A stretch of 20,000 bases of DNA from an uncultured virus (IMG/VR IMGVR_UViG_3300030372_002776) (taxonomy: Duplodnaviria; Heunggongvirae; Uroviricota; Caudoviricetes), in IMG/VR virus record IMGVR_UViG_3300030372_002776. One strand, written 5' to 3'. The position numbers were made by a program, and so were the translations under genes. The notes beneath the pieces are model-generated. The model did not search any database, was not told the DNA's origin, and saw only the letters and a list, made by a program, of their open reading frames with translations. Shown one piece after another: positions 1 to 19,999 of the stretch; the stretch's first letter is position 1, and each line of letters starts with the position of its first letter.

Positions 1-3000
1 ATTAGGAAGTACTTCAGGACCCCAATATCTTCCATTTACAGAACATCCGGCTCTATTTCCACAACAGATAACTGGGCCAGCGCATGTTGTACCGTCTCCT
101 CCACCAAATCCTTGACGAGGGCAAACTATATCATCACCCAGATCATTAAATGATTCACAAAGACAACAAACTTCCCAAGCTACCTCTGCACCAAAATCCC
201 CCCAATTGTCGCCTTGACCGCTATACTGTGTGCTATTCCAAGTATCAATAATATCTTGATTTTGATAGTCCCCTGATTCCATCATCTTAATTACAACGGC
301 TTCTTTGCAGCTTATTAAAGAGGCTTCAGGTATATCATAGATAAAGCTGGGTTGGCTGTTTTGTAAACCTAATCTTTTTGTTGTAATATTTCCGGGCCAT
401 TCTGAAGGATCTCCGCTTTTAGAATTTACATATAAACATTCAAAATTATTAGATCCATCACAGCAAGCACCAAATGCGTTATCATTTACTCCGCCGGGAC
501 CGCCGCCGTCATCATTAGTGCAGTTTGCTCCTCCTGAGGAGCAATCTTCTTTTCCACATTCACAAGTACCTTGATCAACACCATTGCCGTCATTATTATA
601 AGAAGTACAAAGAGAATTTAAAGGGAAAAATTGACTTGCATTAGCTAATTTAGCTTCAGCGCATTCACAAATTTTGAATAAGGTTTTATTTCTAAAGCCA
701 GAAAAAATTCCTTCGGTACACTCTCTCCATTCCATGCTTCCTTGTAATATAGAAGAAGCACCTCCTAAACAACTTAATGGTCTCTTAGTGATAGCATCAG
801 TATTTCCAAGAGAATCAGCAAAAGCATTTACTCCGGGCTGTGCATAACTTCTATAAAATCCTTCCCACCATTGAAGATATCTAGGAGGAATTCGATTAGA
901 TGTATTTTGTCTATGAGCAGTATGAACTGACTCAGGAATAGGCATAGATATACCAAATACGCATCTATTTTGTGCCGAATCTGTGTTTAAGTTATTGCCT
1001 CCGCCTCCTGAGTCATCAGAACATTTATCAGCTTCTTCTATTCTAAATAAATAAAGACCAGCAGGAATTACATAAGTAGAACATTCATATCTAAACCTGT
1101 TAAAGTTTTCTCCATTAAGTTCTTCTCTTGTTCCGTTTCCTGTTCCAGAAGCCTTAAGAAATTGTTTTCCTGTTTTTGTGTCTTTAGCTGTATGTTTAAT
1201 TCCAATAGTAAAGGTAGGCATAAAAGTATGCCCTCCAAAGTTTTGTCCTCTGCCTCCATCTTCAATATCAGTTGAAAAATTATATTTTCCATTAGAAGAA
1301 TAAACATCGAATTTAGCTTCTATTTTTCCTGAAGCAGCATTAGCAGTATAATTGTAATGAACAGGAGCATAACTAGGAATTCCTAGTCCAGTATACGCTG
1401 TTCTTCCATAAAATCTATTTTGAGAATCTACAGGATCTAAAGAAGAAGGCCGATCAAGGCCATCTTGTACTTCTGAGGCTGTGCAAGCCAGTGTTTTACC
1501 GCTTTCATTATTTAGAACAACTTCGGTATTTGCGTCATCGTTAGAATCGGTTAAATCCGCAAAACTAAGTCCTCCAAAAGTACTTTGTTCATAATCTCCT
1601 TGATATATAGATACATTTGCTCCTACATCTTCTTTGCATTGTATTTGAGTTCCTACTTGAATACTTCCTCCTAAACCATATTGATATCCTCCATATACAT
1701 AATATGAGCCATTTGAGTTCTCATACGGTCTTGGAATATAAGGAGTAGTAGAAGAGTTGTTTTCAGGAGTTATCATACATGCACTAGCTCTGTGATTGTT
1801 TTGTTTTGCGTGTTCGGCCACATCAATCACATTGCCAGTGTTACTAAATTTATTTTTTTTAAAAAGCTCTTCAATAGTAGAGTCTCCGTTTCTACTTCCC
1901 TCGCCTGTTCCTCCTACAACGTCATTACTATCTTCTAAATACCTTCTATCTAATAGAATCGATGCATTGGCGGTATTTTCTTGAGTATCTTCTAAGAAAA
2001 CAGCGGGATCTGTAACCCAGTGAATTACTCCTCCTTGATTATCTTGAATAGAACTAAGTTCATAATGGGAAACATAATTTTCTGTATCATTTGGATTAAT
2101 ACTTAGTCTTGTTCCTACTCCATTATTTTCTTTTGGACATTCAAAAGCATAATCTTTATTTCTATTTACAGTGCCAAAAGAAAGAGGGAGTGCATCTACT
2201 AAGTTACAGCTTGCTTTTGTATTTCTAATATAAGTAAATACTAAACGAAGTTTGTCAGAGGCATCTTCTTCTCCGCTAAGACCAACTTCTTCTGGTGCGC
2301 CCCAAGGTGGTCCGCTTATTCCCTCAGCAACTGTTGTTTTTGCTATTTTTTGTCCAGAATCGTCCCAATTAGAAAAAACTTCTGCGCTGCTTAAACAATC
2401 TTCAAATCTTGAATCAGAAACAGCAGCATTTGCCCAAGGATTATCTGCGTCTGTAAGATCAAACTCTCTTACAATAGTAATTGTTTCAGGGAGATACTCA
2501 CTTGTTTTACAGAAGTCTGAATAATCTTCTAGTTTAAGCTCTGCCCCTTGACTTCCTGTTGCTGCATTGGTTCTTGTACAAGGATTTCCTCCTTGCCACT
2601 TTGTATTATCTGTAGTATTTCCTGTATTTAAACCACTAAGAATAGTTCCGGTTCCAAGTTGCGCGGTATTTGCGTTACTTGCAGAAGCGTTATAACAAGA
2701 TGAACCATTTGCTTCTGCAATGGCAGATTCTGTTCCGTAATACACAGTAGAGCCGTGAGGATTCATTCTAAAATGAATTTCATCAACATGACCTAGTTTA
2801 AGTTCTTTGATAGCTCCTTGAGTCCCTGTATAGGAACTACCAACTGTTGGAGGGAACTGAGAAAAGCCAATAACCTTAAAAGCTCTGTATACTGCTCTAT
2901 TTGTATTATAGGCACCATCAATTGCGGGATCAATCTTCATGACAACAAAGGTTCCCTTGTTGTCTCCGGTCTGTGTCATATTATCTGACTTGTTTGTACC

Positions 3001-4311
3001 GCCTACAAAGGAAGCTAGGGGATCTACGTCACACGCAGTTTTAAAAGCTGCGTTAGCAGTAGAGGTATTGTTTTCTGCCTCTCCGGGCGTTGTCTTAGTA
3101 ATATAGACCCCTTCGCCATGAAGCTCCACCATAACCTTGTCAAGCCCGTGTCCGTTTGCGCTTTCTACAATTGTTTTAAAATTAATTGCAGTTTGTGGAG
3201 CAGAAGTTACTCCTAAGAACTCTTGGTTTGCGGCATTGGGAGAACCTGTGTTTTTTAGTTTATAGGTTTTTGTTTCACCGCCTGCTGTAATTGTAAACTC
3301 CCCAGTATTAGTTCCATTAAATCCGCTTCCAAACTTAAAGTAGTTACTCGCTCTATTAGCACCACTACAGAAGTTTAAAGGAACCCTGCTTTCTGATCCA
3401 CCATATTGTTGATTAAAGTTTTGTTTACTTGTACTATCAGAAGCAAAAGTAATCTTGCCTGCTGTTAGTAGAGTTGAGTTAGGTACTTCTCTTGTAGTGC
3501 CGTCACCGGGGGCTGCAAGTGCATGGGAGGGTGTATTATAATCAGTACCTGTTTGAGCAGCATTTGGATTAATATAATGGGGGTGATTACTATCTCTAAC
3601 TTCTTCTAACAAGGGAGTATAGTCTAAGTAAAAATAGGTATTTCCCATATCGTCTGGAATGCCGTCTTGTACTGTAGCAGATGATTCATCGTATGATTTG
3701 TAATCAAAGTTTTCTTCATCTTCTCTAGTTCTTCCTGTTGGGCAGGTATCGTGAGTTGTTGTATAAGGATTTCCTGCTGGTGTATCTTGTTCAATTTCAC
3801 ATGTAGGCCATGCAAATCTTTCAAAAATATTGCTATCTGAGTGATCATCTTGATTAAATTGAAAATAATCGTTGCAATCACATTGAGCTAAAATAGCATA
3901 TAATCTACCATACCTTTGACCGCCTCCGGCATCATCTTTAGTATTTTTATGAGTAATATGATATCTTAAACAATCTTCGCAGTTTGCTAAGTTTACAGTT
4001 CCGCTCTTAGAGTCGTTTACAAAATTAAGTTGACTGATATTAGTACTATAACTTAATCCTCCAGTAGGAACTTCATCAGCAGTTCTTGCACCCGAAGCAG
4101 TCATCTGATCAGTAATAACAGGGCCATAGCAGCAATTTTGGTTATCTCTAAAATAATGACCTGTAGTATATGCTCCGGCATTTCCATATAAGTTTTCTGG
4201 AACCCAAAGACCATGTGAATCATTTAAACTGTTTCCGATACGAGAAATGGTTTCGGAAACTTCTGCTTTGTTGAATTTTGTACAACAACAGTTTCTGTTA
4301 TTACTCGGCAT
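1..4311 (-). CDS. Giant Cys-rich putative virion/tail-associated protein, >1437 aa, 3'-truncated by the window edge (not in the ORF track)
   Basis: ATG at 4311-4309 preceded by AAGGA overlapping the upstream stop. I translated the frame by hand down to position 1 and found no stop. Starts MPSNNRNCCCTKFNKAEVSETISRIG and ends ...CAGPVICCGNRAGCSVNGRYWGPEVLPN at the edge. G/N/S/T/D-rich with Cys clusters at both ends. The CDS is well supported; the function is inferred from position. Confidence 0.9.
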   Translation of the reverse strand, partial: MPSNNRNCCCTKFNKAEVSETISRIGNSLNDSHGLWVPENLYGNAGAYTTGHYFRDNQNCCYGPVITDQMTASGARTADEVPTGGLSYSTNISQLNFVNDSKSGTVNLANCEDCLRYHITHKNTKDDAGGGQRYGRLYAILAQCDCNDYFQFNQDDHSDSNIFERFAWPTCEIEQDTPAGNPYTTTHDTCPTGRTREDEENFDYKSYDESSATVQDGIPDDMGNTYFYLDYTPLLEEVRDSNHPHYINPNAAQTGTDYNTPSHALAAPGDGTTREVPNSTLLTAGKITFASDSTSKQNFNQQYGGSESRVPLNFCSGANRASNYFKFGSGFNGTNTGEFTITAGGETKTYKLKNTGSPNAANQEFLGVTSAPQTAINFKTIVESANGHGLDKVMVELHGEGVYITKTTPGEAENNTSTANAAFKTACDVDPLASFVGGTNKSDNMTQTGDNKGTFVVMKIDPAIDGAYNTNRAVYRAFKVIGFSQFPPTVGSSYTGTQGAIKELKLGHVDEIHFRMNPHGSTVYYGTESAIAEANGSSCYNASASNANTAQLGTGTILSGLNTGNTTDNTKWQGGNPCTRTNAATGSQGAELKLEDYSDFCKTSEYLPETITIVREFDLTDADNPWANAAVSDSRFEDCLSSAEVFSNWDDSGQKIAKTTVAEGISGPPWGAPEEVGLSGEEDASDKLRLVFTYIRNTKASCNLVDALPLSFGTVNRNKDYAFECPKENNGVGTRLSINPNDTENYVSHYELSSIQDNQGGVIHWVTDPAVFLEDTQENTANASILLDRRYLEDSNDVVGGTGEGSRNGDSTIEELFKKNKFSNTGNVIDVAEHAKQNNHRASACMITPENNSSTTPYIPRPYENSNGSYYVYGGYQYGLGGSIQVGTQIQCKEDVGANVSIYQGDYEQSTFGGLSFADLTDSNDDANTEVVLNNESGKTLACTASEVQDGLDRPSSLDPVDSQNRFYGRTAYTGLGIPSYAPVHYNYTANAASGKIEAKFDVYSSNGKYNFSTDIEDGGRGQNFGGHTFMPTFTIGIKHTAKDTKTGKQFLKASGTGNGTREELNGENFNRFRYECSTYVIPAGLYLFRIEEADKCSDDSGGGGNNLNTDSAQNRCVFGISMPIPESVHTAHRQNTSNRIPPRYLQWWEGFYRSYAQPGVNAFADSLGNTDAITKRPLSCLGGASSILQGSMEWRECTEGIFSGFRNKTLFKICECAEAKLANASQFFPLNSLCTSYNNDGNGVDQGTCECGKEDCSSGGANCTNDDGGGPGGVNDNAFGACCDGSNNFECLYVNSKSGDPSEWPGNITTKRLGLQNSQPSFIYDIPEASLISCKEAVVIKMMESGDYQNQDIIDTWNSTQYSGQGDNWGDFGAEVAWEVCCLCESFNDLGDDIVCPRQGFGGGDGTTCAGPVICCGNRAGCSVNGRYWGPEVLPN

Positions 4312-4324
4312 TTATATTTATTCC

Positions 4325-5836
4325 TTATCCACATAAGCCTTGTGAGACGTTTGGCATACTAAAGTAGTAAAATGGGGGAGACGGAGTATACATTGATCCG
4401 TCTGTTTCTTTTCCAATCGAGGGGGAAGAGTTCGCTGGTACACTTCCTTGGAAGTTTGTTCCTGCACCTCTGCCGCCGGGAGGAAAGAGGCCAGAATAAT
4501 TATCTTCTCCAGATACGCTTGCGGTCCATCTTTCATGCATAACAACAATTGTTCCGGGCATAATAGGCTCAACAGTATAGTTTTGAGGAAATTGTCTTTT
4601 TGCATATAGTTTACTAGTAGTGGTTGTAGATGAGGTCAATTTAGACGTAATTTCTTTAACATGAGCGGTGTCGTGTCCTGCGGTATCGTTATTAGAATCA
4701 GTTAAAGACATACCTGCGCCCATTACACCATAGCCATCAGTTGCTGCCCCAGAGGTATCCGAAGACACATAGAAGTTTGACATCTCTGCTGTATTTAATG
4801 CATAGAAATATCCGTTATTGGTTCCTCCGGTTGTTGGATCAACGCTCTTCCATGTTCTTGCTTGTGTTGAATTAATTGCAGGCGTTTGTGTAGTAGCCCC
4901 GTATTGCATAAATAGACCATCAAGAGTTGGTAATGATCCATCCCAATTTCCGCCTGAAAGTTTAGGATCATATTCACCAGAAACAATACTCATTGATATT
5001 CCAGTAACATTGCCATCCGTTGGATTAGTCACAGTTAATCCAGCAGATTTATAGAGGGAATCAGAGATATTAATATTTTCTGGAACATCTCTTGTAAGAA
5101 TAATACTATTTGTACTTAACTCTTTTGTAGCGGTATGAAACCTAATTGTTGATGTATTATTTGTAATAGTACCGAGACCAGTAGCGGTAGTACTAGACTG
5201 AGTAATATTATTCCAAGCACTTTCCCAGTTAGTTAAAAATTGAGCAATTGTATCAGAATTGACGGTTCCGGTTAAATCGTGATCTAATTTTAAACTAAAC
5301 TCCGCTAGACTTGTGGTATATGATGGGTCTGCAAGAGCAACGGCTTGGTTTGATCCTGCGTTTGTTCCATACAGAGTTACGGGAAGTTTAAAGGTAGTAG
5401 TAACATCATTAGTTCCCCAAGTGTTATTAGCAAAGGTAAAGGTAAGTTTTACTTGGTGAGCAATTGGAGTTCTGATTGCAACTTCTTCCCATTCATACAT
5501 CCATCTGTTTTCATTGGTTGACGAATCAGCAGCATCATACGCAGGTCCTGCTGCTGCGTTTCTTGTACCCATAGCAGTATGCCCAGTAATTCGTGCAAGA
5601 AATACCTGTCTGTCTAGCTGTTCTCTGATTAGATCAATAGTAGCCGCTCTAGAGATAAACCTTTCTCCTACAGCACTATCTCCATAGTGTACATAAAGTT
5701 CTGCGGGATTTGCGGTTTTGTCTGCGGATTGTACGGGATCATCTGGTAATGATACTGTAACTTCTCCATGTGCGCCCGTAGTAAACACGGCATGTTCTGC
5801 TGCCGTTCCTCTTCGACGCTTAACTTGCTTAGCCAT
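4325..5836 (-). CDS. Tail fibre/adaptor-like protein with Mtd-like (major tropism determinant) N-terminal domain
   Basis: N-terminus MAKQVKRRRGTAAEHAVFTTGAHGEVTV...ELYVHYGDSAVG resembles the Bordetella phage BPP-1 Mtd N-terminal motif (VQFRGGTTAQHATFTGAAREITVD...VVVHDG). T/S/N/G-rich body, AAGGAG RBS, directly downstream of tail tubular B. Confidence 0.75.
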   Translation of the reverse strand: MAKQVKRRRGTAAEHAVFTTGAHGEVTVSLPDDPVQSADKTANPAELYVHYGDSAVGERFISRAATIDLIREQLDRQVFLARITGHTAMGTRNAAAGPAYDAADSSTNENRWMYEWEEVAIRTPIAHQVKLTFTFANNTWGTNDVTTTFKLPVTLYGTNAGSNQAVALADPSYTTSLAEFSLKLDHDLTGTVNSDTIAQFLTNWESAWNNITQSSTTATGLGTITNNTSTIRFHTATKELSTNSIILTRDVPENINISDSLYKSAGLTVTNPTDGNVTGISMSIVSGEYDPKLSGGNWDGSLPTLDGLFMQYGATTQTPAINSTQARTWKSVDPTTGGTNNGYFYALNTAEMSNFYVSSDTSGAATDGYGVMGAGMSLTDSNNDTAGHDTAHVKEITSKLTSSTTTTSKLYAKRQFPQNYTVEPIMPGTIVVMHERWTASVSGEDNYSGLFPPGGRGAGTNFQGSVPANSSPSIGKETDGSMYTPSPPFYYFSMPNVSQGLCG

Positions 5837-11578: not shown

Positions 11579-12331
11579 TCAGCCCTTTGCCTTCCAGTAT
11601 CGTATATCTCTTCTATGACCAAAGTTTCGACGAGTAGCTCTTACAATAGCATTATCGCCTACGGAGAAGATATTTCTTTTTCTGTCATTAATATCAGATG
11701 CTTTAGCCTTAGCCATAAACATCTGCTCACGGCCCCCTAGAAGCTTGTCTGCGCCTGCGTCTCCCTGAGTAGCCATTTGGTACATTCTTTCAGCGGTGGC
11801 TGTAATGGCCCTCTGCGTGGCTGTGTCGATGTTCTCGAAGGATACAAAAAGATCCATGAGAACTGTATATTCAGTATTGAGATCAAATTCAGCGGTTTGA
11901 TTTGTAGTATTATAAAGAAAGTTTTTATTTGCGTCTGCGGTTACAATAGTTCCTAGACCTGTAAAAGTACTTCCAATTCTATCAAAGCCATAAATAAGCT
12001 TTCCATCTGTATCATAATGAGGCGAAATAAGCTCTGCTGAAATAAGAGATCCATCTGTAGGAGTATCAGAATATGCGTATCCTAAATCAATATATCCGTT
12101 GCCTGACGAGGGTGTAACGCTGCTTGCGCTTAGGGCTGTAGCTGAGGGGGTATATTTCTTTTCAAACTGATTATTAGTAAGGCCTCTAATTTGGTAGTCC
12201 ATTACTACTTGATTAAAAATCTGATTTGCTACTCCTGTTTCGACTGACGTATCTGTTAACGCTGTAATGATAGATTCACCGGATGCTAAAAGCATTTGGT
12301 TAATACAGTCAAGCTTACTCATCAAGCCCAT
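11579..12331 (-). CDS. gp11: Tail tubular protein A / gatekeeper (T7 gp11-like)
   Basis: SKLDCINQMLLASGESIITAL resembles gp11 [20 protein letters not shown]; C-terminal FENIDTATQRAITATAERMYQ helix pattern; lies between capsid and tubular B; AGGAG RBS. Confidence 0.88.
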   Translation of the reverse strand: MGLMSKLDCINQMLLASGESIITALTDTSVETGVANQIFNQVVMDYQIRGLTNNQFEKKYTPSATALSASSVTPSSGNGYIDLGYAYSDTPTDGSLISAELISPHYDTDGKLIYGFDRIGSTFTGLGTIVTADANKNFLYNTTNQTAEFDLNTEYTVLMDLFVSFENIDTATQRAITATAERMYQMATQGDAGADKLLGGREQMFMAKAKASDINDRKRNIFSVGDNAIVRATRRNFGHRRDIRYWKAKG

Positions 12332-12350
12332 AGGAGTCTCCTTTTAAAAG

Positions 12351-12388
12351 TTAAAAAATCCGACCCGCCCCCTTTCGGGGACGAGCCG
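12351..12388 (-). terminator. Rho-independent terminator after the capsid gene (positional analogue of T7 Tphi)
   Basis: Minus strand CGGCTCGTCCCC-GAAA-GGGGGCGGGTCG forms a 12-bp stem (3 G-U pairs) with a GNRA loop, followed by GATTTTTTAAC. Confidence 0.85.
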
Positions 12389-12430
12389 TTTGAAATGTAT
12401 GCATGTATATAAAAATATATACAGAAAGAA

Positions 12431-13750
12431 TTAACCGAATGGGTAGTTTGAAGTACCAGCGGTTGAACCGAAGTCTGCAACCATATGCATAAGAGCGCGG
12501 GCATCTGTGCCTGCGCCTGCTGCACGGGTAATACTAGCGTTCGAGCTAACAAGAGCAACACATTCTGGACGTAAAGTACCAGTTCCGCCCATCATGGATG
12601 CAACGGTAAAGTTGGTGTTACGTCGAACGTCTTCTACGGTATCAACCTTCATGCCTTGAAGCGAGAGCGCACAAACTGACTCTGGCTTCCACATGATTGA
12701 TTGTAGATTAGCATCTAAGAAGCCAAGGTTATACTTATCATCACCAATAGCATCAATAGCTGCGGTAGTAGCATAACCACCATTGTCTTGACCCTTATTT
12801 TCACCAGCAATGTTCTTGACATTTCCGGCAAACAAAGTCTTAAGGTGGTTGCTCTTAACGATAGTCATTCCCATGTAATCAAGGGTATCGCTAAGTGCGT
12901 TGTAGCCATCTTCAAGACCATTACCAAGACCACCAGCTTCTGCAACACCACCGAACATTGGGCGACCAGCACCACCAAGTAGGGAGGAGTTATCTCTGGC
13001 TACACCAAGGGCGCGGATGTCAGCAAAGGTTTGTGGGGTAACAGCGCAGAAAGTTCCTTCTGCAAGAATGTTGTTTTCCTGTAAGTGAACATGGAATTCT
13101 TCAATCTGCTGTAGAAGGAGAAGGGCTGCATCAGTTCTCTGAGCAGCAGTACCACTTCCGCTGGCATTACCAAGGTGAGCATGAGTAGCTGAACCAAAGA
13201 TCTTACCGGCAATGTTACCAGAGCTTTCACCAGCAGTTGCGTTAGAAGTAAATGCAGTACCATCAGTGGCACCAGCACGAACGAGAGCCGCAAGAATCTG
13301 CTTATCTCTAGCGTTAGCAAGAGTAAGACCAGATTGACGAGCAAGCTCACTACGGTATTCCCACTGTGAAATCATAGCATCAATGTTATCAATTTCAAAG
13401 TGAGCAGCGTAAGGACGATTGTCCAAACGAACGGCAATGGTATCAGAACCATAGCCATTAGTTGGCTGGTTACCGAGTAGCTCTTGACCAGCACCCCATG
13501 ATGCCTTAAGATCAACAGTACCAGTAACGGGGAATTCCATTACGCGGCCACTGGAGATGGTTTTAGCAGTTACGAGGGGTTCGAAAACTCTATAGTGATC
13601 GTAAGCAGTAATAACTTCACCGGACCATACGGGAAGCCATAGTTTATTAGCACCAGATACGCCGCCGGTGGTTCCGAGGAATGCCTCTGCGTTATATGCA
13701 TTACTTGCATTTGCGCCGCGACCAAATCCCATATTAGCTAGAGCAGTCAT
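12431..13750 (-). CDS. gp10: Major capsid protein (T7 gp10-like, HK97 fold)
   Basis: LWLPVWSGEVITAY...KTISSGRVMEFPVTG resembles gp10 LFLKVFGGEVLTAF...RSISSGKSAQFPVLG; YRSELARQSGLTLANARDKQI and C-terminal VASMMGGTGTLRPECVA also match the family pattern. GAAAGGAAA RBS; lies downstream of the scaffold gene. Confidence 0.95.
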   Translation of the reverse strand: MTALANMGFGRGANASNAYNAEAFLGTTGGVSGANKLWLPVWSGEVITAYDHYRVFEPLVTAKTISSGRVMEFPVTGTVDLKASWGAGQELLGNQPTNGYGSDTIAVRLDNRPYAAHFEIDNIDAMISQWEYRSELARQSGLTLANARDKQILAALVRAGATDGTAFTSNATAGESSGNIAGKIFGSATHAHLGNASGSGTAAQRTDAALLLLQQIEEFHVHLQENNILAEGTFCAVTPQTFADIRALGVARDNSSLLGGAGRPMFGGVAEAGGLGNGLEDGYNALSDTLDYMGMTIVKSNHLKTLFAGNVKNIAGENKGQDNGGYATTAAIDAIGDDKYNLGFLDANLQSIMWKPESVCALSLQGMKVDTVEDVRRNTNFTVASMMGGTGTLRPECVALVSSNASITRAAGAGTDARALMHMVADFGSTAGTSNYPFG

Positions 13751-13784
13751 GATTATTTCCTTTCAAAGAATTTGACTATCTATA

Positions 13785-13916
13785 TAAAATAAAAAGAGGG
13801 TGATTATCACACGCTTTGATTATTCCTTGAAAGGAGTCTTAGCGAGGTGTCTTACGGCGAAAAGCCATCCATTGCCCGAAGGGGGATTTGCTATCCGATT
13901 TCGACGTAATCAACCT
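13785..13916 (-). promoter_or_regulatory. Putative structured cis-regulatory RNA in the scaffold-capsid intergenic leader
   Basis: Outer stem AGGUUGAUUA/UAAUCACCCU encloses two hairpins (13858-13897 with a C-UUCG-G loop; 13808-13849 GA-C-UCCU-UUCA-AGGA-AUAA-UC), followed by CUUUUUAUUUU. Folded by eye only. Confidence 0.55.
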
Positions 13917-13919
13917 AAC

Positions 13920-14855
13920 TTATAACTGACCGCCTTGAGCTTCATAAGTTAAACGTAACTTATTCTCAACAGCGGCTCTGTATTTTGGATCTCTAGTATA
14001 TCTTTTATCTCTCATTGCAGCAAGCATAAGATCCCGAGAACCAAAAGGTTCTTCTACGGAACCAACATTAGCTGTTGGCTGTGCTTGTTCTACCATGCTG
14101 GTAGGCTCTTTTGTTTTCTGAGAGGATACAGAAGATTCATACTTAGTTTTTAACCCAAGCATTACGGTCTCCCACGCAGGGGTTCGCAATCCTTCGTTAA
14201 TTTTAGCTCGTTCGTCAGCAGGAAGATTCTTGGAAGCCCATGACATAAGAGTGTTAAGCTCTTGCTCAGACCCAACTACATTAGCTGCTTCATTAACAGC
14301 TTGCTTCATCATAGCTTTTCTTCCGGCTACAATTTCATTGATAATAGCATCTTGAACACCGAATTCAGCTTTGATAGATTCTCTTGTAGCGTCTGTAAGA
14401 TTTCCATTATTATTATCAATTTCAAGTCCCCATTCAGCCCAGTTTTCAGGTTGAATAACTTTACCATTAGGAGCCACCGTTTCCTCTGGCTCTTCTGAAG
14501 GAGCTTCTGGAATTTCCAGCTTATCCATATCTAACTGAGGAGCTTCCTCTACAGGAGCCTCTGGCTCTTCTGGAGCCACATAGTTGGGGTTTTCGGTCCC
14601 TTCTTGGTATTGTTTCTTTAGATCAGAAACCTCTTGACGGGCCTTAGTATACTCTGCTTGTGCGCCCTTGAGTGAATCAAACCACGCACCGGCATCCTTA
14701 AAGTTCTCAGGAATTGCCTCTCCGTTTTCCTGTACATGCCTTTCAAAGGCTTGTCTTTCATTGTTTACTTGAGTTTGTTCTGGAGTCATCCCTTGAGATT
14801 GTTCCGTGGTTGTTGCTTCTGGAGCAGCCTGTGGAGTCTCGTTATTATTATCCAT
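13920..14855 (-). CDS. gp9: Capsid assembly scaffolding protein (T7 gp9-like)
   Basis: Acidic E/P/A-rich protein. C-terminal FGSRDLMLAAMRDKRYTRDPKYRAAVENKL resembles gp9 FADRSEMIKAMSDPRYRTDANYRRQVEQKV; VVGSEQELNTLMSWASKNL matches the central helix motif. Immediately upstream of the capsid gene. Confidence 0.92.
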   Translation of the reverse strand: MDNNNETPQAAPEATTTEQSQGMTPEQTQVNNERQAFERHVQENGEAIPENFKDAGAWFDSLKGAQAEYTKARQEVSDLKKQYQEGTENPNYVAPEEPEAPVEEAPQLDMDKLEIPEAPSEEPEETVAPNGKVIQPENWAEWGLEIDNNNGNLTDATRESIKAEFGVQDAIINEIVAGRKAMMKQAVNEAANVVGSEQELNTLMSWASKNLPADERAKINEGLRTPAWETVMLGLKTKYESSVSSQKTKEPTSMVEQAQPTANVGSVEEPFGSRDLMLAAMRDKRYTRDPKYRAAVENKLRLTYEAQGGQL

Positions 14856-17733: not shown

Positions 17734-18984
17734 TTACTTTACTTTTTTAGCAAACTGCATAAAGTTTTTTTCTACAGCTAATTTAACAGCCGCTGCATTA
17801 TCAATGTTGTCAAGAGGCATTCCAGAAGATCCCGGCTCTATGGTAAAGTTGTAAGTTGCGTGTTTGTTTCCTGTTCCTCCAGAAAAGTCAGTTACTGCAA
17901 TATCATCAAGATCTTCACCAACGCCGCCTTCTTCTTCATCATGAACTGTGTTACCTGTTGCTCCAGCCGTTGCTTGGAAAAGAGTAATTGCTTGTTTTCC
18001 ATCAGCCTGAGTAGGGACTTCTGAAACAAAAATCTTTCCATTATGACCAGCAGCAGATTCAATTGCCGCCTTAAATTGAACTAATACAGCATTTTGAGTA
18101 GAAGAGCTTAGGTCTGGAATAGTTACAGCAATTGCTCCATCAAGTCCTGCTGGGAGTGTCGATGCACCTGTATCAGCACCAGTACTCAATGCGGTGCCTG
18201 TAGCTGCTTGAGTTCCTGCGGGTGCATCATCTACAATGACATACTTCCTTGTAGTTCCATCAGTACTTATAAGCTTAAGGTTACCAAGTTCATCACATAG
18301 AGTAACCGCATCGCCGTCAGTTACGGTTATGGTACAAGTTGCTGCTGTTCCAATTCCTCCGCTAAAATCGGGCTTAGTAGTTAAAACAGGAACATCACAA
18401 GTTACTGTAGTGTTTCCTGCTCTTCCTTCTATTTTTTGAGTAAAAGTCATAGTCTTAGGACCGTCAGATACGGCTGCAGCAGCACTTACTGTAATTCTAC
18501 CGTTATGCCCATTAGCATGTTCAACGGCATCTTTAAGTTTATTTAAATATGCTGATTGGGTTGCTGAAGCACTTACTACCACAGCAACACATTGAACACC
18601 AGTATTAAAAAGCTGTGAATCTAAAGTTGAAGCACCTGTGTCCCCATTTTCACCGAGAATATCTCCAGTAGAAGGGGAGCCTGCTTGTCCAGACCTACAA
18701 GTAACATAATATCTACTTGTTCCATCAGTTGATGTCATCCGTATGGATGTTCCTTCTGTCCACTGACTCGCTGTAGCATCGTCTCCATCAGGAACAGTAA
18801 GAACAGAAGTAGCTGCTGCTCCTGCTACGTCATAAGGATATTTATCATTCATAAAAGTCGATAGGGCCACATTAGCAATATCGTCTACTACCTCTGAGTT
18901 TGAATCAGGAGCAGATGATGTTCCTTGATTATCGCAAGCAGAGGCAATCGCGTCTAAGTATTCTGTATCTCCAATAGCCATCAT
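17734..18984 (-). CDS. Virion-type protein containing two tandem ~155-aa repeats
   Basis: 416-aa ORF with AGGAG RBS. Both repeats share AAT..(L/I)TV.DGD, STDGT.R.YV, DTGASTL, TQ.A.L...K.A(V/I)E.A.GHNG(R/K)I.VS, DG...(M/I)T..Q...G..GNT and DFSGG. Confidence 0.85.
   Translation of the reverse strand: MMAIGDTEYLDAIASACDNQGTSSAPDSNSEVVDDIANVALSTFMNDKYPYDVAGAAATSVLTVPDGDDATASQWTEGTSIRMTSTDGTSRYYVTCRSGQAGSPSTGDILGENGDTGASTLDSQLFNTGVQCVAVVVSASATQSAYLNKLKDAVEHANGHNGRITVSAAAAVSDGPKTMTFTQKIEGRAGNTTVTCDVPVLTTKPDFSGGIGTAATCTITVTDGDAVTLCDELGNLKLISTDGTTRKYVIVDDAPAGTQAATGTALSTGADTGASTLPAGLDGAIAVTIPDLSSSTQNAVLVQFKAAIESAAGHNGKIFVSEVPTQADGKQAITLFQATAGATGNTVHDEEEGGVGEDLDDIAVTDFSGGTGNKHATYNFTIEPGSSGMPLDNIDNAAAVKLAVEKNFMQFAKKVK
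17875..18816 (-). repeat. Intragenic tandem domain duplication (copies at approx. 18355-18816 and 17875-18346)
   Basis: Collinear protein motifs in both copies; residual DNA identity, e.g. tccatcagt (STDG) and gcacctgtRtc (DTGA), in both. Confidence 0.9.
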
Positions 18985-19007: not shown

Positions 19008-19130
19008 TTATTTTTTTCTTTTTGAATACGATTTTGAAGACATTTTACTGCCTGTCTTCTTGGCATATTTTTTAGCTGCCTCTTTACCTGATTTGGTATA
19101 AGGGAATTTCTTTTTTCCTACTTTTGGCAT
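19008..19130 (-). CDS. 40-aa Lys-rich basic protein (not in the ORF track)
   Basis: Hand translation MPKVGKKKFPYTKSGKEAAKKYAKKTGSKMSSKSYSKRKK*. TAATG stop/start overlap with the upstream gene and GAGGA RBS. Confidence 0.8.
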   Translation of the reverse strand: MPKVGKKKFPYTKSGKEAAKKYAKKTGSKMSSKSYSKRKK

Positions 19131-19477
19131 TATTTTTTCCTCTTTCGTGGTGGTCGTGGTACACTTGGTCTGGGGGACCGAGGGGCATCAGGGTTTCTTG
19201 GTGGTCGAGGCCTTACTCCCGGTTTGTTGGGACCGCCCCTACTCCCTGCTGGTCTGTCTCTTCCCTTCGCAGGTGTGGCGTTGGGTGTAGGCGGCTCGTA
19301 GGGGACGTAGGGGCCGACTCCCGGTCGCATGTGCTTTCTGTGTTCGGGCCACTTATCAGGGTAAAACGTATCTGGGTGAACAAATGGAAAATATGCTCTA
19401 TTTTCTGGCCTGCCAGATCCTTTACTAGATAAGTATCTAGATCTAGAACCAGATCCGTTCATGTTTTTTTTAGACAT
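19130..19477 (-). CDS. 115-aa Pro/Arg-rich basic protein, paralogue of 19625..19999
   Basis: AAGGA RBS inside the end of the upstream gene; N-terminus MSKKNMNGSGSRSRYLSSKGSGRPENR shared with its paralogue; low-complexity R/P tail. Confidence 0.75.
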   Translation of the reverse strand: MSKKNMNGSGSRSRYLSSKGSGRPENRAYFPFVHPDTFYPDKWPEHRKHMRPGVGPYVPYEPPTPNATPAKGRDRPAGSRGGPNKPGVRPRPPRNPDAPRSPRPSVPRPPRKRKK

Positions 19478-19480
19478 TGT

Positions 19481-19621
19481 TTATTTCCTTCTTGTTTTAG
19501 TAGGCCTAGGCTTAGGCTTTCGTGGTTTAGGCTTAGGCTTTACTTTTGGAGCCTTAGGCTTCTTTGGATTAACCTTAGGGTGATGAGGAGCATAACCTCC
19601 TCGTTTTGGTTTCTGTGGCAT
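19481..19621 (-). CDS. 46-aa Lys/Pro-rich basic protein (not in the ORF track)
   Basis: Hand translation MPQKPKRGGYAPHHPKVNPKKPKAPKVKPKPKPRKPKPRPTKTRRK*. AAGGT RBS; fills the gap with 3-nt spacers on both sides. Confidence 0.75.
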   Translation of the reverse strand: MPQKPKRGGYAPHHPKVNPKKPKAPKVKPKPKPRKPKPRPTKTRRK

Positions 19622-19624
19622 GGT

Positions 19625-19999
19625 TTATCTACCTTTTCCTGTTCTACCACGTTTTCTGTTTTTTCGCTCTAATTCTAGAAGCCTTCTGTTTTCGTCTCTT
19701 CTTCTTCTGATAGAGTCCTGTGATTCGCCGGGCCTTCTTCTAACACCATCTTCATCACCGCCACCGGGTTCGCTTGGAGTATCAAACCACGGAGTTTCTG
19801 GTCTACGGACAGGAGAATAGGGTTTTGATGGTGGATCTAATGGAGATCCCTCGGGGTATGGAAGACCCGGAGTATAAAAGCCGGGTAGTTTTCGGAGAGG
19901 ACTATAATCGACGCTTCTATTTCCCGGCCTACTGCCAGATCCTTTAGATCCTGTCATTCTTGCTCTAGAACCAGAGCCATTAAACATATTCTTAGCCAT
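19625..19999 (-). CDS. 124-aa Arg/Pro/Gly-rich basic protein, paralogue of 19130..19477
   Basis: MAKNMFNGSGSRARMTGSKGSGSRPGNR N-terminus aligns with the paralogue, which supports this start although the RBS is outside the window. Arg-rich C-terminus. Confidence 0.7.
   Translation of the reverse strand: MAKNMFNGSGSRARMTGSKGSGSRPGNRSVDYSPLRKLPGFYTPGLPYPEGSPLDPPSKPYSPVRRPETPWFDTPSEPGGGDEDGVRRRPGESQDSIRRRRDENRRLLELERKNRKRGRTGKGR

Follow-up and report, generated by a model that had tools for sequence, protein, structure and literature searches.

A C-terminal cysteine in a putative phage tail adaptor is genetically coupled to a CC(C)-leader partner gene: a candidate joint in a spike-and-tip variant

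Introduction

The window analyzed here, a stretch of 20,000 nucleotides (nt) from the uncultured virus record IMGVR_UViG_3300030372_002776, is the structural block of a T7-like podophage, with every gene in the block on the minus strand. Directly after the nozzle gene it encodes a protein of 503 amino acids (aa) whose sole cysteine (Cys) is C502 (codon at 4331-4333), and the next gene encodes a Cys-rich partner opening with MPSNNRNCCC. This arrangement raises the question of whether the terminal Cys and the CCC leader belong together. A first-pass annotation had proposed that the two meet in a covalent or metal-bridged joint between an Mtd-type adaptor and a giant adhesin. Its motifs in the 503-aa protein were all found where it had placed them, and the terminal segment does hold the only Cys; the CCC start of the next gene was located slightly differently, since the start codon lies 13 nt past the stop and CCC occupies residues 8-10 rather than the very start.

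Judged from sequence comparison, the module is real and widespread; it appears to be a variation on the spike-and-tip design, for which the genetic case is strong and the chemistry a candidate. It comprises three genes, with a small Cys-motif gene belonging to it as far as gene order indicates. A direct Cys-dependent joint between adaptor and payload is given a probability of about 0.6, split nearly evenly between disulfide and metal chemistry.

Results and Discussion

Coupling of the terminal cysteine and the leader gene

Viral, metagenome and genome collections were scanned, and clusters were defined at 60% identity. The first set was retrieved with peptide patterns free of Cys; its 30th cluster, L201, was an unrelated protein and was dropped, leaving 29 true clusters. 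The terminal motif was present in 27 of these, the exceptions being L200, with a Cys at the end of an extension, and L181, which has no Cys. A CCC leader was found downstream in 18/29 clusters, CC or CxCC in 7/29 and a longer leader with DCDCC in 1/29 (L200), some of them (short frames or GTG starts) being scored by eye. The three clusters without a leader were the two tandem cores of L199 and L181. A strict tag of start plus CCC occurred 17 times in 106 kilobases (kb) downstream versus once in 181 kb upstream, and the controls gave no occurrence in 70 kb lying farther downstream and a single one in 357 kb of the other strand. With a looser CC rule, the numbers were 21 downstream, 0 upstream, 0 farther downstream and 18 on the other strand.

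A genome-derived set of 23 clusters, two of them common with the first set, served as a further comparison: a leader gene followed 17 of the 18 Cys-bearing clusters (visual scoring added four motifs that the pattern had missed), while none of the four Cys-less clusters that were read 9.7-10.1 kb downstream had a leader gene within 4.5 kb. For a fifth Cys-less row, 109 nt of downstream sequence were at hand. Thus, the terminal Cys is retained among homologs and a CC/CCC-leader gene comes after them, as the first-pass annotation had anticipated. The absence of the CCC gene from the Cys-less lineage supports functional coupling. One scan of Cys-less loci used a GC filter that missed the low-GC positives L251 and L252; the 23-cluster tally was unfiltered.

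Fifteen Cys-less loci (L234-L242 and L244-L249) were fetched from roughly 40 such matches listed. Their next gene overlaps the core gene and is methyltransferase-like (cut short in one locus), and the order of the tape-measure and ~270-aa genes is kept where listed. Apparent CC leaders at +106 in L234 and L240 were rejected, as they overlap the real methyltransferase-like gene in another frame; the Cys-less loci gave two further CC matches, at distances of 8.5 and 9.1 kb. In a tree of 63 rows and 122 columns with many open forks, the four well-read Cys-less clusters form one clade (100/99). L181, with no motif and no leader gene within its slot of 1.1 kb, stands elsewhere in the tree, L181 and L215 lying inside a supported Cys-bearing group (98/82). 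Cys and leader gene would therefore be jointly absent on about two independent occasions. The coupling holds at gaps from -4 nt to 3.7 kb and after a nozzle or a tape-measure gene, and the stops and starts of the pair overlap or abut in many distant clusters.

Among the protein records P0003-P0043, which contain near-identical cluster members, N-x3-G-x-C lies within two residues of the end in 40/41; the sole miss is a fragment ending ahead of the C-terminal half. Cys conservation in alignment A8 (50/51) was dropped as evidence because most rows had been chosen with a Cys-containing pattern, which makes it circular.

Several variants of the pair were also seen. In L200 (5403-6449), a long C-terminal extension ends in DDDCT and the next gene has DCDCC at residues 27-31, so both ends of the pair are altered together. 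The tandem cores of L199 (7171-8618) precede a 652-aa payload and may perhaps form a mixed trimer. A C-x8-C loop lies inside the Cys-less cores instead. The genomes G002 and G537 each harbor cores with the Cys and cores without it. In L238, a glycosyltransferase-like gene follows the methyltransferase-like gene, in the payload's place.

The partner and the third gene

The leader has the form M-x(4-9)-CC(C), in which Arg, Lys or Gly often precedes the Cys run; nothing else is common to the leaders. CCC was the commonest version, in 24 of 30 aligned rows, which had been picked for CC. The bodies behind it differ: 33 partner bodies of 136-1673 aa fall into 25 families, and the leader is the only feature common to the payloads. 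One partner is an SBBP beta-propeller with five Cys in all, three of them in the leader; another carries RCC1 repeats, and 17 other partners in the same scan matched nothing. The window partner matched no Pfam or PHROG family, and the PAAR family gave no match in Pfam scans of the partners. The partners of L001, L003 and L004 are complete, with 1438-1673 aa and 52-58 Cys. Elsewhere many partners have no more than 136-400 aa, and their genes often lie 0.6-3.7 kb from the adaptor gene, which departs from the first-pass picture of a giant protein encoded next door. Since the leader sits on unrelated bodies and is kept at up to 3.7 kb, it looks like a docking signal. The predicted partner is likely a receptor-binding or adhesion payload.

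A gene for a 65-195-aa Cys-motif protein starts within 20 nt of the partner stop in 26 of 27 loci, the exception being L107; the gap between the two ranges from -19 to +19 nt. In L001, L003 and L004, it is a CxxC gene of ~100 aa. Some third genes match PHROG 13558 or 32048, or DUF6171 under the cut-off. From its position, the third protein probably helps the payload to fold or load. Its place in the window's phage is off the left edge, and both the partner end and the third gene were taken from the relatives L001, L003 and L004. Most third genes belong to two types, one with C-x2-C-x2-R-x3-LN and one like DUF6171/PHROG 13558; they lie at L001 16555-16842, L007 13827-14102, L114 11324-11632 and L169 4440-4703, among others.

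Fold of the adaptor core

The adaptor core is a domain of ~120 aa divided by inserts. The full-length model was confident for residues 125-290 alone, with a predicted local distance difference test score (pLDDT) under 50 elsewhere, and fold searches with it were informative for the insert only. A short homolog from L131 gave a model with a pLDDT of 75.6, consisting of a helix, a five-strand barrel and one final strand of four residues (170-173) before the Cys. Compared with 48,161 chains, this model matched P2 gpV best (Z 5.4, root-mean-square deviation 3.1, 71 residues), followed by a Streptomyces injection-system baseplate chain (Z 5.2) and by PhiTE, Bas63, A-1(L) and Mu baseplate chains and the R2 pyocin spike (Z 4.9-4.6). 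Thus, the top seven chains were all spikes or baseplates of phages, pyocins or injection systems (Z 4.6-5.4), general OB proteins coming next from Z 4.4. Chains 9gtr_q, 9cuy_Y, 9ndy_G, 8kea_D and 9ki1_V are taken to be spikes from their titles, their lengths and recall. The structural match ends at residue 167-174 of 175, 1-8 residues before the Cys and at the point where the beta-helix of spikes sets in. With such low Z scores, an OB fold of the modeled core is likely, and spike ancestry is plausible rather than shown.

Foldseek with the homolog model returned nothing at E 0.001 and, against viral models, two uncharacterized proteins of uncultured Caudovirales; a PDB sequence search with the core gave no match. 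The 503-aa protein is probably an adaptor of the virion tail, with a putative OB domain of the central-spike type as its foundation and without the beta-helical needle. The Mtd-type adaptor of the first-pass annotation has to be recast in this respect, as the defining part is the probable OB-fold domain of spike-base type and most relatives are without an Mtd-like head. What remains of the Mtd-like N-terminus is a weak match of residues 5-29 to Pfam PF18454 (Mtd_N; 17.6 bits, E 0.0036), below the gathering cut-off of 26.3 bits; P0016 also stays under it with 19.0 bits. The adaptor start also matched PHROG 9648 (E 0.003), Mtd structure chains surfaced at E 1.2 and no better, and Mtd domains other than Mtd_N found no match in the adaptor. 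In alignments, the Mtd_N-like head is restricted to the podophage clade.

A candidate mechanism and its alternatives

The adaptor would most likely form a trimer, docking in podophages via its Mtd_N-like head, while the short siphophage versions would dock on the tail tip via an N-terminal helix. The three C-terminal Cys would meet near the axis, where the needle would begin, and lock the CC(C) leader of a separately encoded, variable, Cys-rich payload. This lock may consist of disulfides formed after lysis, which is slightly preferred, or of a shared metal ion or cluster. On the podophage particle, the adaptors might form six side appendages, like Mtd on BPP-1 fibers, or one axial nozzle plug. 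The trimer, the physical contact, the 3:1 ratio, the chemistry, receptor binding and the location on the particle are all predicted rather than observed features.

Spikes are trimers of an OB fold with a beta-helix (PMC12407873), in this domain order (PMC11915804, PMC12407873), and those without HxH carry a monomeric tip (PMC12407873). In Agrobacterium phage Milano, fibers are joined to the baseplate by interchain disulfides (PMC10811340). Other minimal hubs and modeled monomer-on-trimer tips are described, with cysteine unmentioned in the available parts of PMC13243795 and PMC12309495.

Several observations weigh against a direct Cys-dependent joint. Cys is abundant along the whole length of most payloads, which leaves room for the leader to pair inside its own chain, and L243 has the Cys although 6.2 kb contain no leader gene. 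Because the well-read Cys-less clusters form one clade, the joint loss rests on about two lineages and not on the nominal p of 0.0007; a single lineage would give 0.1. CC in place of CCC, seen in at least seven clusters, is a poor fit to a strict three-disulfide joint; the leader of L196 is CxC, and in L199 the payload behind the tandem cores has just one Cys at its start (HSC). In L161, L190, L250 and L253, 100-220 residues follow the Cys, which need not be terminal. As to the fold, the match is weak (Z under 8, with general OB proteins at Z 4.4), the modeled homolog is about 31% identical to the adaptor in the alignment, and the adaptor's own core has no confident model.

Three disulfides would suit CCC leaders; for the variants with CC, CxC or a single Cys, a shared metal site is the better fit. 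The metal-centered version, in which three axial adaptor Cys and one or more leader Cys bind Zn, Fe or Fe-S, replacing the iron of the three HxH motifs in gpV-type spikes, and the third protein delivers the metal, is by itself somewhat unlikely. It would tolerate CC, CxC and single-Cys leaders, the CxxC or DUF6171-like motifs of the third gene fit metal delivery, and phage assembly takes place in the reducing cytoplasm. Spike apices and tail-tip proteins are known to bind Fe or Fe-S (PMC12407873, PMC11915804, PMC7296036, PMC11445458). On the other hand, CCC, the commonest leader (24/30 aligned), offers more ligands than one site needs, payloads with 8-58 Cys look extracellular and suit disulfides, and the RcGTA hub supplies all four ligands from one chain; a 3+1 sharing of the RcGTA cluster between two proteins was rejected, as all four Cys are in the hub. 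Ordinary strand pairing in the style of gp5-gp5.4 or VgrG-PAAR, with the Cys linking adaptor subunits and CCC pairing inside the payload or with the small third protein, is less likely still. The short extra end strand of the model (170-173) would suit strand addition, known tips bind via a hydrophobic patch and main-chain hydrogen bonds (PMC12407873), and the third gene lies closer to the payload gene (-19 to +19 nt) than the adaptor gene does. However, the leaders have cysteines alone in common, one Cys per chain cannot all pair up within a trimer, and Cys and leader gene are absent together.

That adaptor and payload merely travel together as parts of one tail design, the payload attaching elsewhere (nozzle, ~270-aa tail-tip protein or fiber) and never touching the adaptor, appears improbable. 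Fiber and lysis-like genes do lie between the two in many siphophage loci, and few lineages underlie the joint loss; yet the pair persists across podophage and siphophage tails that have no other recognized tail gene in common, its genes overlap or abut in many distant clusters, and the Cys-less prophages retain the upstream tail genes without the payload. The frequent overlap of stops and starts (-4 to 0 nt) might also suggest a single protein made by frameshift or read-through, or a CCC leader acting as a lipid-attachment or export signal. This is very improbable, as the partner has its own ribosome-binding site and is often 0.6-3.7 kb away, and the leaders are 5-10 residues long with no hydrophobic stretch.

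Relation to known systems

The central spikes (P2 gpV, Mu gp45, R2 pyocin spike, T4 gp5, VgrG) are the best structural match, at low Z, for the predicted OB-like barrel of the core. A further likeness is gene position, the core gene closing the block of tail genes two genes past the tape-measure gene; like the VgrG OB domain, some cores are fused to the end of 620-920-aa proteins. In contrast to the central spikes with their beta-helix, the adaptor ends about seven residues past the barrel in N-x3-G-x-C. It has no triple beta-helix, the chain stopping one residue after Cys502, and no HxH iron-binding apex was seen in the listed family C-termini. Moreover, central spikes belong to contractile sheathed tails, whereas the core occurs in podophage and sipho-type tails, and that of the window clade carries large inserts.

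T4 gp5.4/PAAR tips and T-even gp38 on gp37 provide the parallel of a separate, likely single-copy protein capping a trimer, and PAAR tips carry varied payloads (PMC12407873). PAAR and gp5.4 tips fold into conserved cones that are kept in place through main-chain hydrogen bonding, whereas here only a CC(C) leader of 5-12 residues is shared. The interchain disulfides of Milano fix tail spike and short fiber to the baseplate (PMC10811340) in a particle-wide network, whereas here one dedicated Cys would pair with a portable leader. In the Bordetella podophage BPP-1, Mtd forms trimers on the tips of the tail fibers (PMC2408619); it weakly matches the first 29 residues of the adaptor, and non-podophage members are without this head. 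Cys-bound metal in the tail tip is found in lambda gpL, the RcGTA hub and the JBD30 upper baseplate protein. A single chain supplies the four Cys in RcGTA and in JBD30 (PMC7296036, PMC11445458), while the adaptor has one, so any metal site must be shared between chains. On these comparisons, the adaptor is outside the spike, PAAR, Mtd_N and four-Cys Fe-S tail protein families. No literature on this module was found by title and abstract, subscription papers and supplements being largely uncovered.

It is tentatively suggested, with odds below even, that the module is a portable covalent plug common to short- and long-tailed planctomycete phages. A needle-less trimer and a ten-residue CCC leader would lock any payload one-to-three through disulfides or a metal cluster, be it a 136-aa domain, a beta-propeller or an adhesin of 1,700 aa, with help from a dedicated small Cys protein. 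If true, this would be a second, chemically distinct solution to the trimer-to-monomer problem solved by PAAR tips, and a natural peptide tag for swapping receptor-binding modules. The data suggest a minimal cysteine tag coupling unrelated payloads to a trimer, and would place a central-spike-like domain outside contractile tails, T7-like podophages included. They offer a testable anatomy for a family without a Pfam or PHROG model that marks the tail tip, and point to the CC(C)-leader gene as the likely host-recognition gene in phages almost without cultured representatives.

Distribution of the family

The first-pass statement that such gene pairs occur in uncultured phages and Planctomycetota assemblies held for both. 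The domain is present in podophages, siphophages and Planctomycetota prophages, and many uncultured phages from freshwater and the sea carry it. Relatives of 371-385 aa with the same ends came from a search for close homologs and from a profile search that covered 1.84 billion representatives. A short form of 147-305 aa aligns with the adaptor after the inserts are set aside; the profile match of the second half is non-circular, with a probability of 95% over 23 columns only, and that of the first half is circular in part. Where the major tail protein is of the sipho type, the short form is encoded two genes past the tape-measure gene. In the tree, seven podophage rows form one clade (99/91) amid other rows.

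The single match of a species-wide genome scan was a Planctomycetota assembly. Genomes were then sampled from the Planctomycetota phylum and from the order of this assembly, and the domain occurred in 2/401 (earlier profile) and 48/401 of them, respectively. Searching three core versions with tblastn against 50,697 annotated phage records returned nothing. Pfam has no model for the core, and the single PHROG match of the core is weak (E 0.027) and without known function. Look-alikes in the Atlas either had no name or scored below 0.9.

The major tail and tape-measure genes of loci L114, L238 and L251 are of the sipho type, and no sheath family match was obtained among 30 scanned proteins. A gene for 230-305 aa of no known family always lies between the tape-measure gene and the core (L107 7125-7994, L114 7102-7866, L238 11364-12161, L251 8657-9442); these loci have no recognizable hub or central-fiber gene and a very small tail tip. 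In L250, L253, L219 and L220, the core is fused to a frame of 790-1250 aa, the Cys being followed by 34-135 residues, and a gene of about 190 aa separates the fused core from the CC(C) gene at L250 9038-9604 and L253 10329-10913. Many long-tailed members have, after the module, a 280-390-aa gene with a W-x4-NW motif and an M-x4-W-x-G start (L131 5355, L133 12362-15300, L180 2368; also L196, L199 and L181), sometimes in two or three copies and with no confident Pfam family.

Parts of the adaptor and layout of the window

The features of the window are listed in Table 1. Within the adaptor, FLARITG (79-85), RWMYEWEEV (111-119), ALNTAEMSN (346-354) and PIMPGTIVVM (424-433) are followed by the C-terminal segment YYFSMPNVSQGLCG at residues 490-503, and T/S/N make up 37% of residues 121-340. 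The segment at 62-77 is presumably equivalent to the predicted helix 15-34 at the same place in the short homolog model. The insert is missing from short homologs and weakly resembles sheath, T4 gp11 and flagellin/FliD domains (fold search, Z 6.6 or lower). No Pfam or PHROG match to the T7 fiber N-terminal anchor domain was found in the 503-aa protein or the partner.

Table 1. Positions of the adaptor, its parts, the partner and neighboring structural genes in the window.
Feature	Positions	Strand	Basis
Cys-rich partner, at least 1437 aa, 46 Cys, open to the left edge of the window	1..4311	-	
Partner leader MPSNNRNCCC; CCC, residues 8-10, at 4282-4290	4282..4311	-	
13-nt spacer with Shine-Dalgarno-like AAGGA	4312..4324	-	sequence
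503-aa putative adaptor: Mtd_N-like head, short helix, OB core split by inserts, terminal Cys	4325..5836	-	
Last strands and terminal motif YYFSMPNVSQGLCG	4328..4369	-	sequence, homolog conservation
OB core, second half: ALNTAE and PIMPGTIVVM	4538..4801	-	alignment, profile match
Inserted folded domain, about residues 125-290	4967..5464	-	confident part of full-length model
OB core, first half: FLARITG and RWMYEWEEV strands	5480..5602	-	alignment, profile match
Helix-like segment, residues 62-77, ahead of OB core	5606..5653	-	position
Mtd_N-like start, residues 1-29; conserved head to about residue 61	5750..5836	-	
Nozzle, T7-type, enlarged, 1909 aa	5847..11576	-	PF25675, E 1.4e-54
T7-type tail tubular/adaptor protein, major capsid protein, scaffold	11579..14855	-	Pfam and PHROG scans

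Spacers of a similar kind separate adaptor and partner in L001, L003, L004, L006, L007 and L012. In L007, of the same clade as the window, small and large terminase genes follow the module. The nozzle, adaptor ring and capsid proteins are Cys-poor (0.4-0.7%). The nearest virus record is a 6.6-kb fragment without the adaptor gene. The nozzle is more than twice as long as the 794-position family model, relatives having about 1400 to 1916 aa, and its inserts could be docking sites for the adaptor.

A mobile domain of ~115 aa is common to the giant partner (residues 325-438; window 2998-3339, minus strand), a 416-aa open reading frame (ORF) at 17734-18984 (minus strand) and the homolog P0012, where it forms an extra insert at residues 107-224 that interrupts the OB core (40% identity). 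The insert of the window's adaptor did not match the repeat of this ORF. Short ORFs very rich in Lys/Arg occur in runs near structural or terminase genes, in the window at 19130-19999 (minus strand) and correspondingly in L001 (17200-18400) and L003 (15270-16340).

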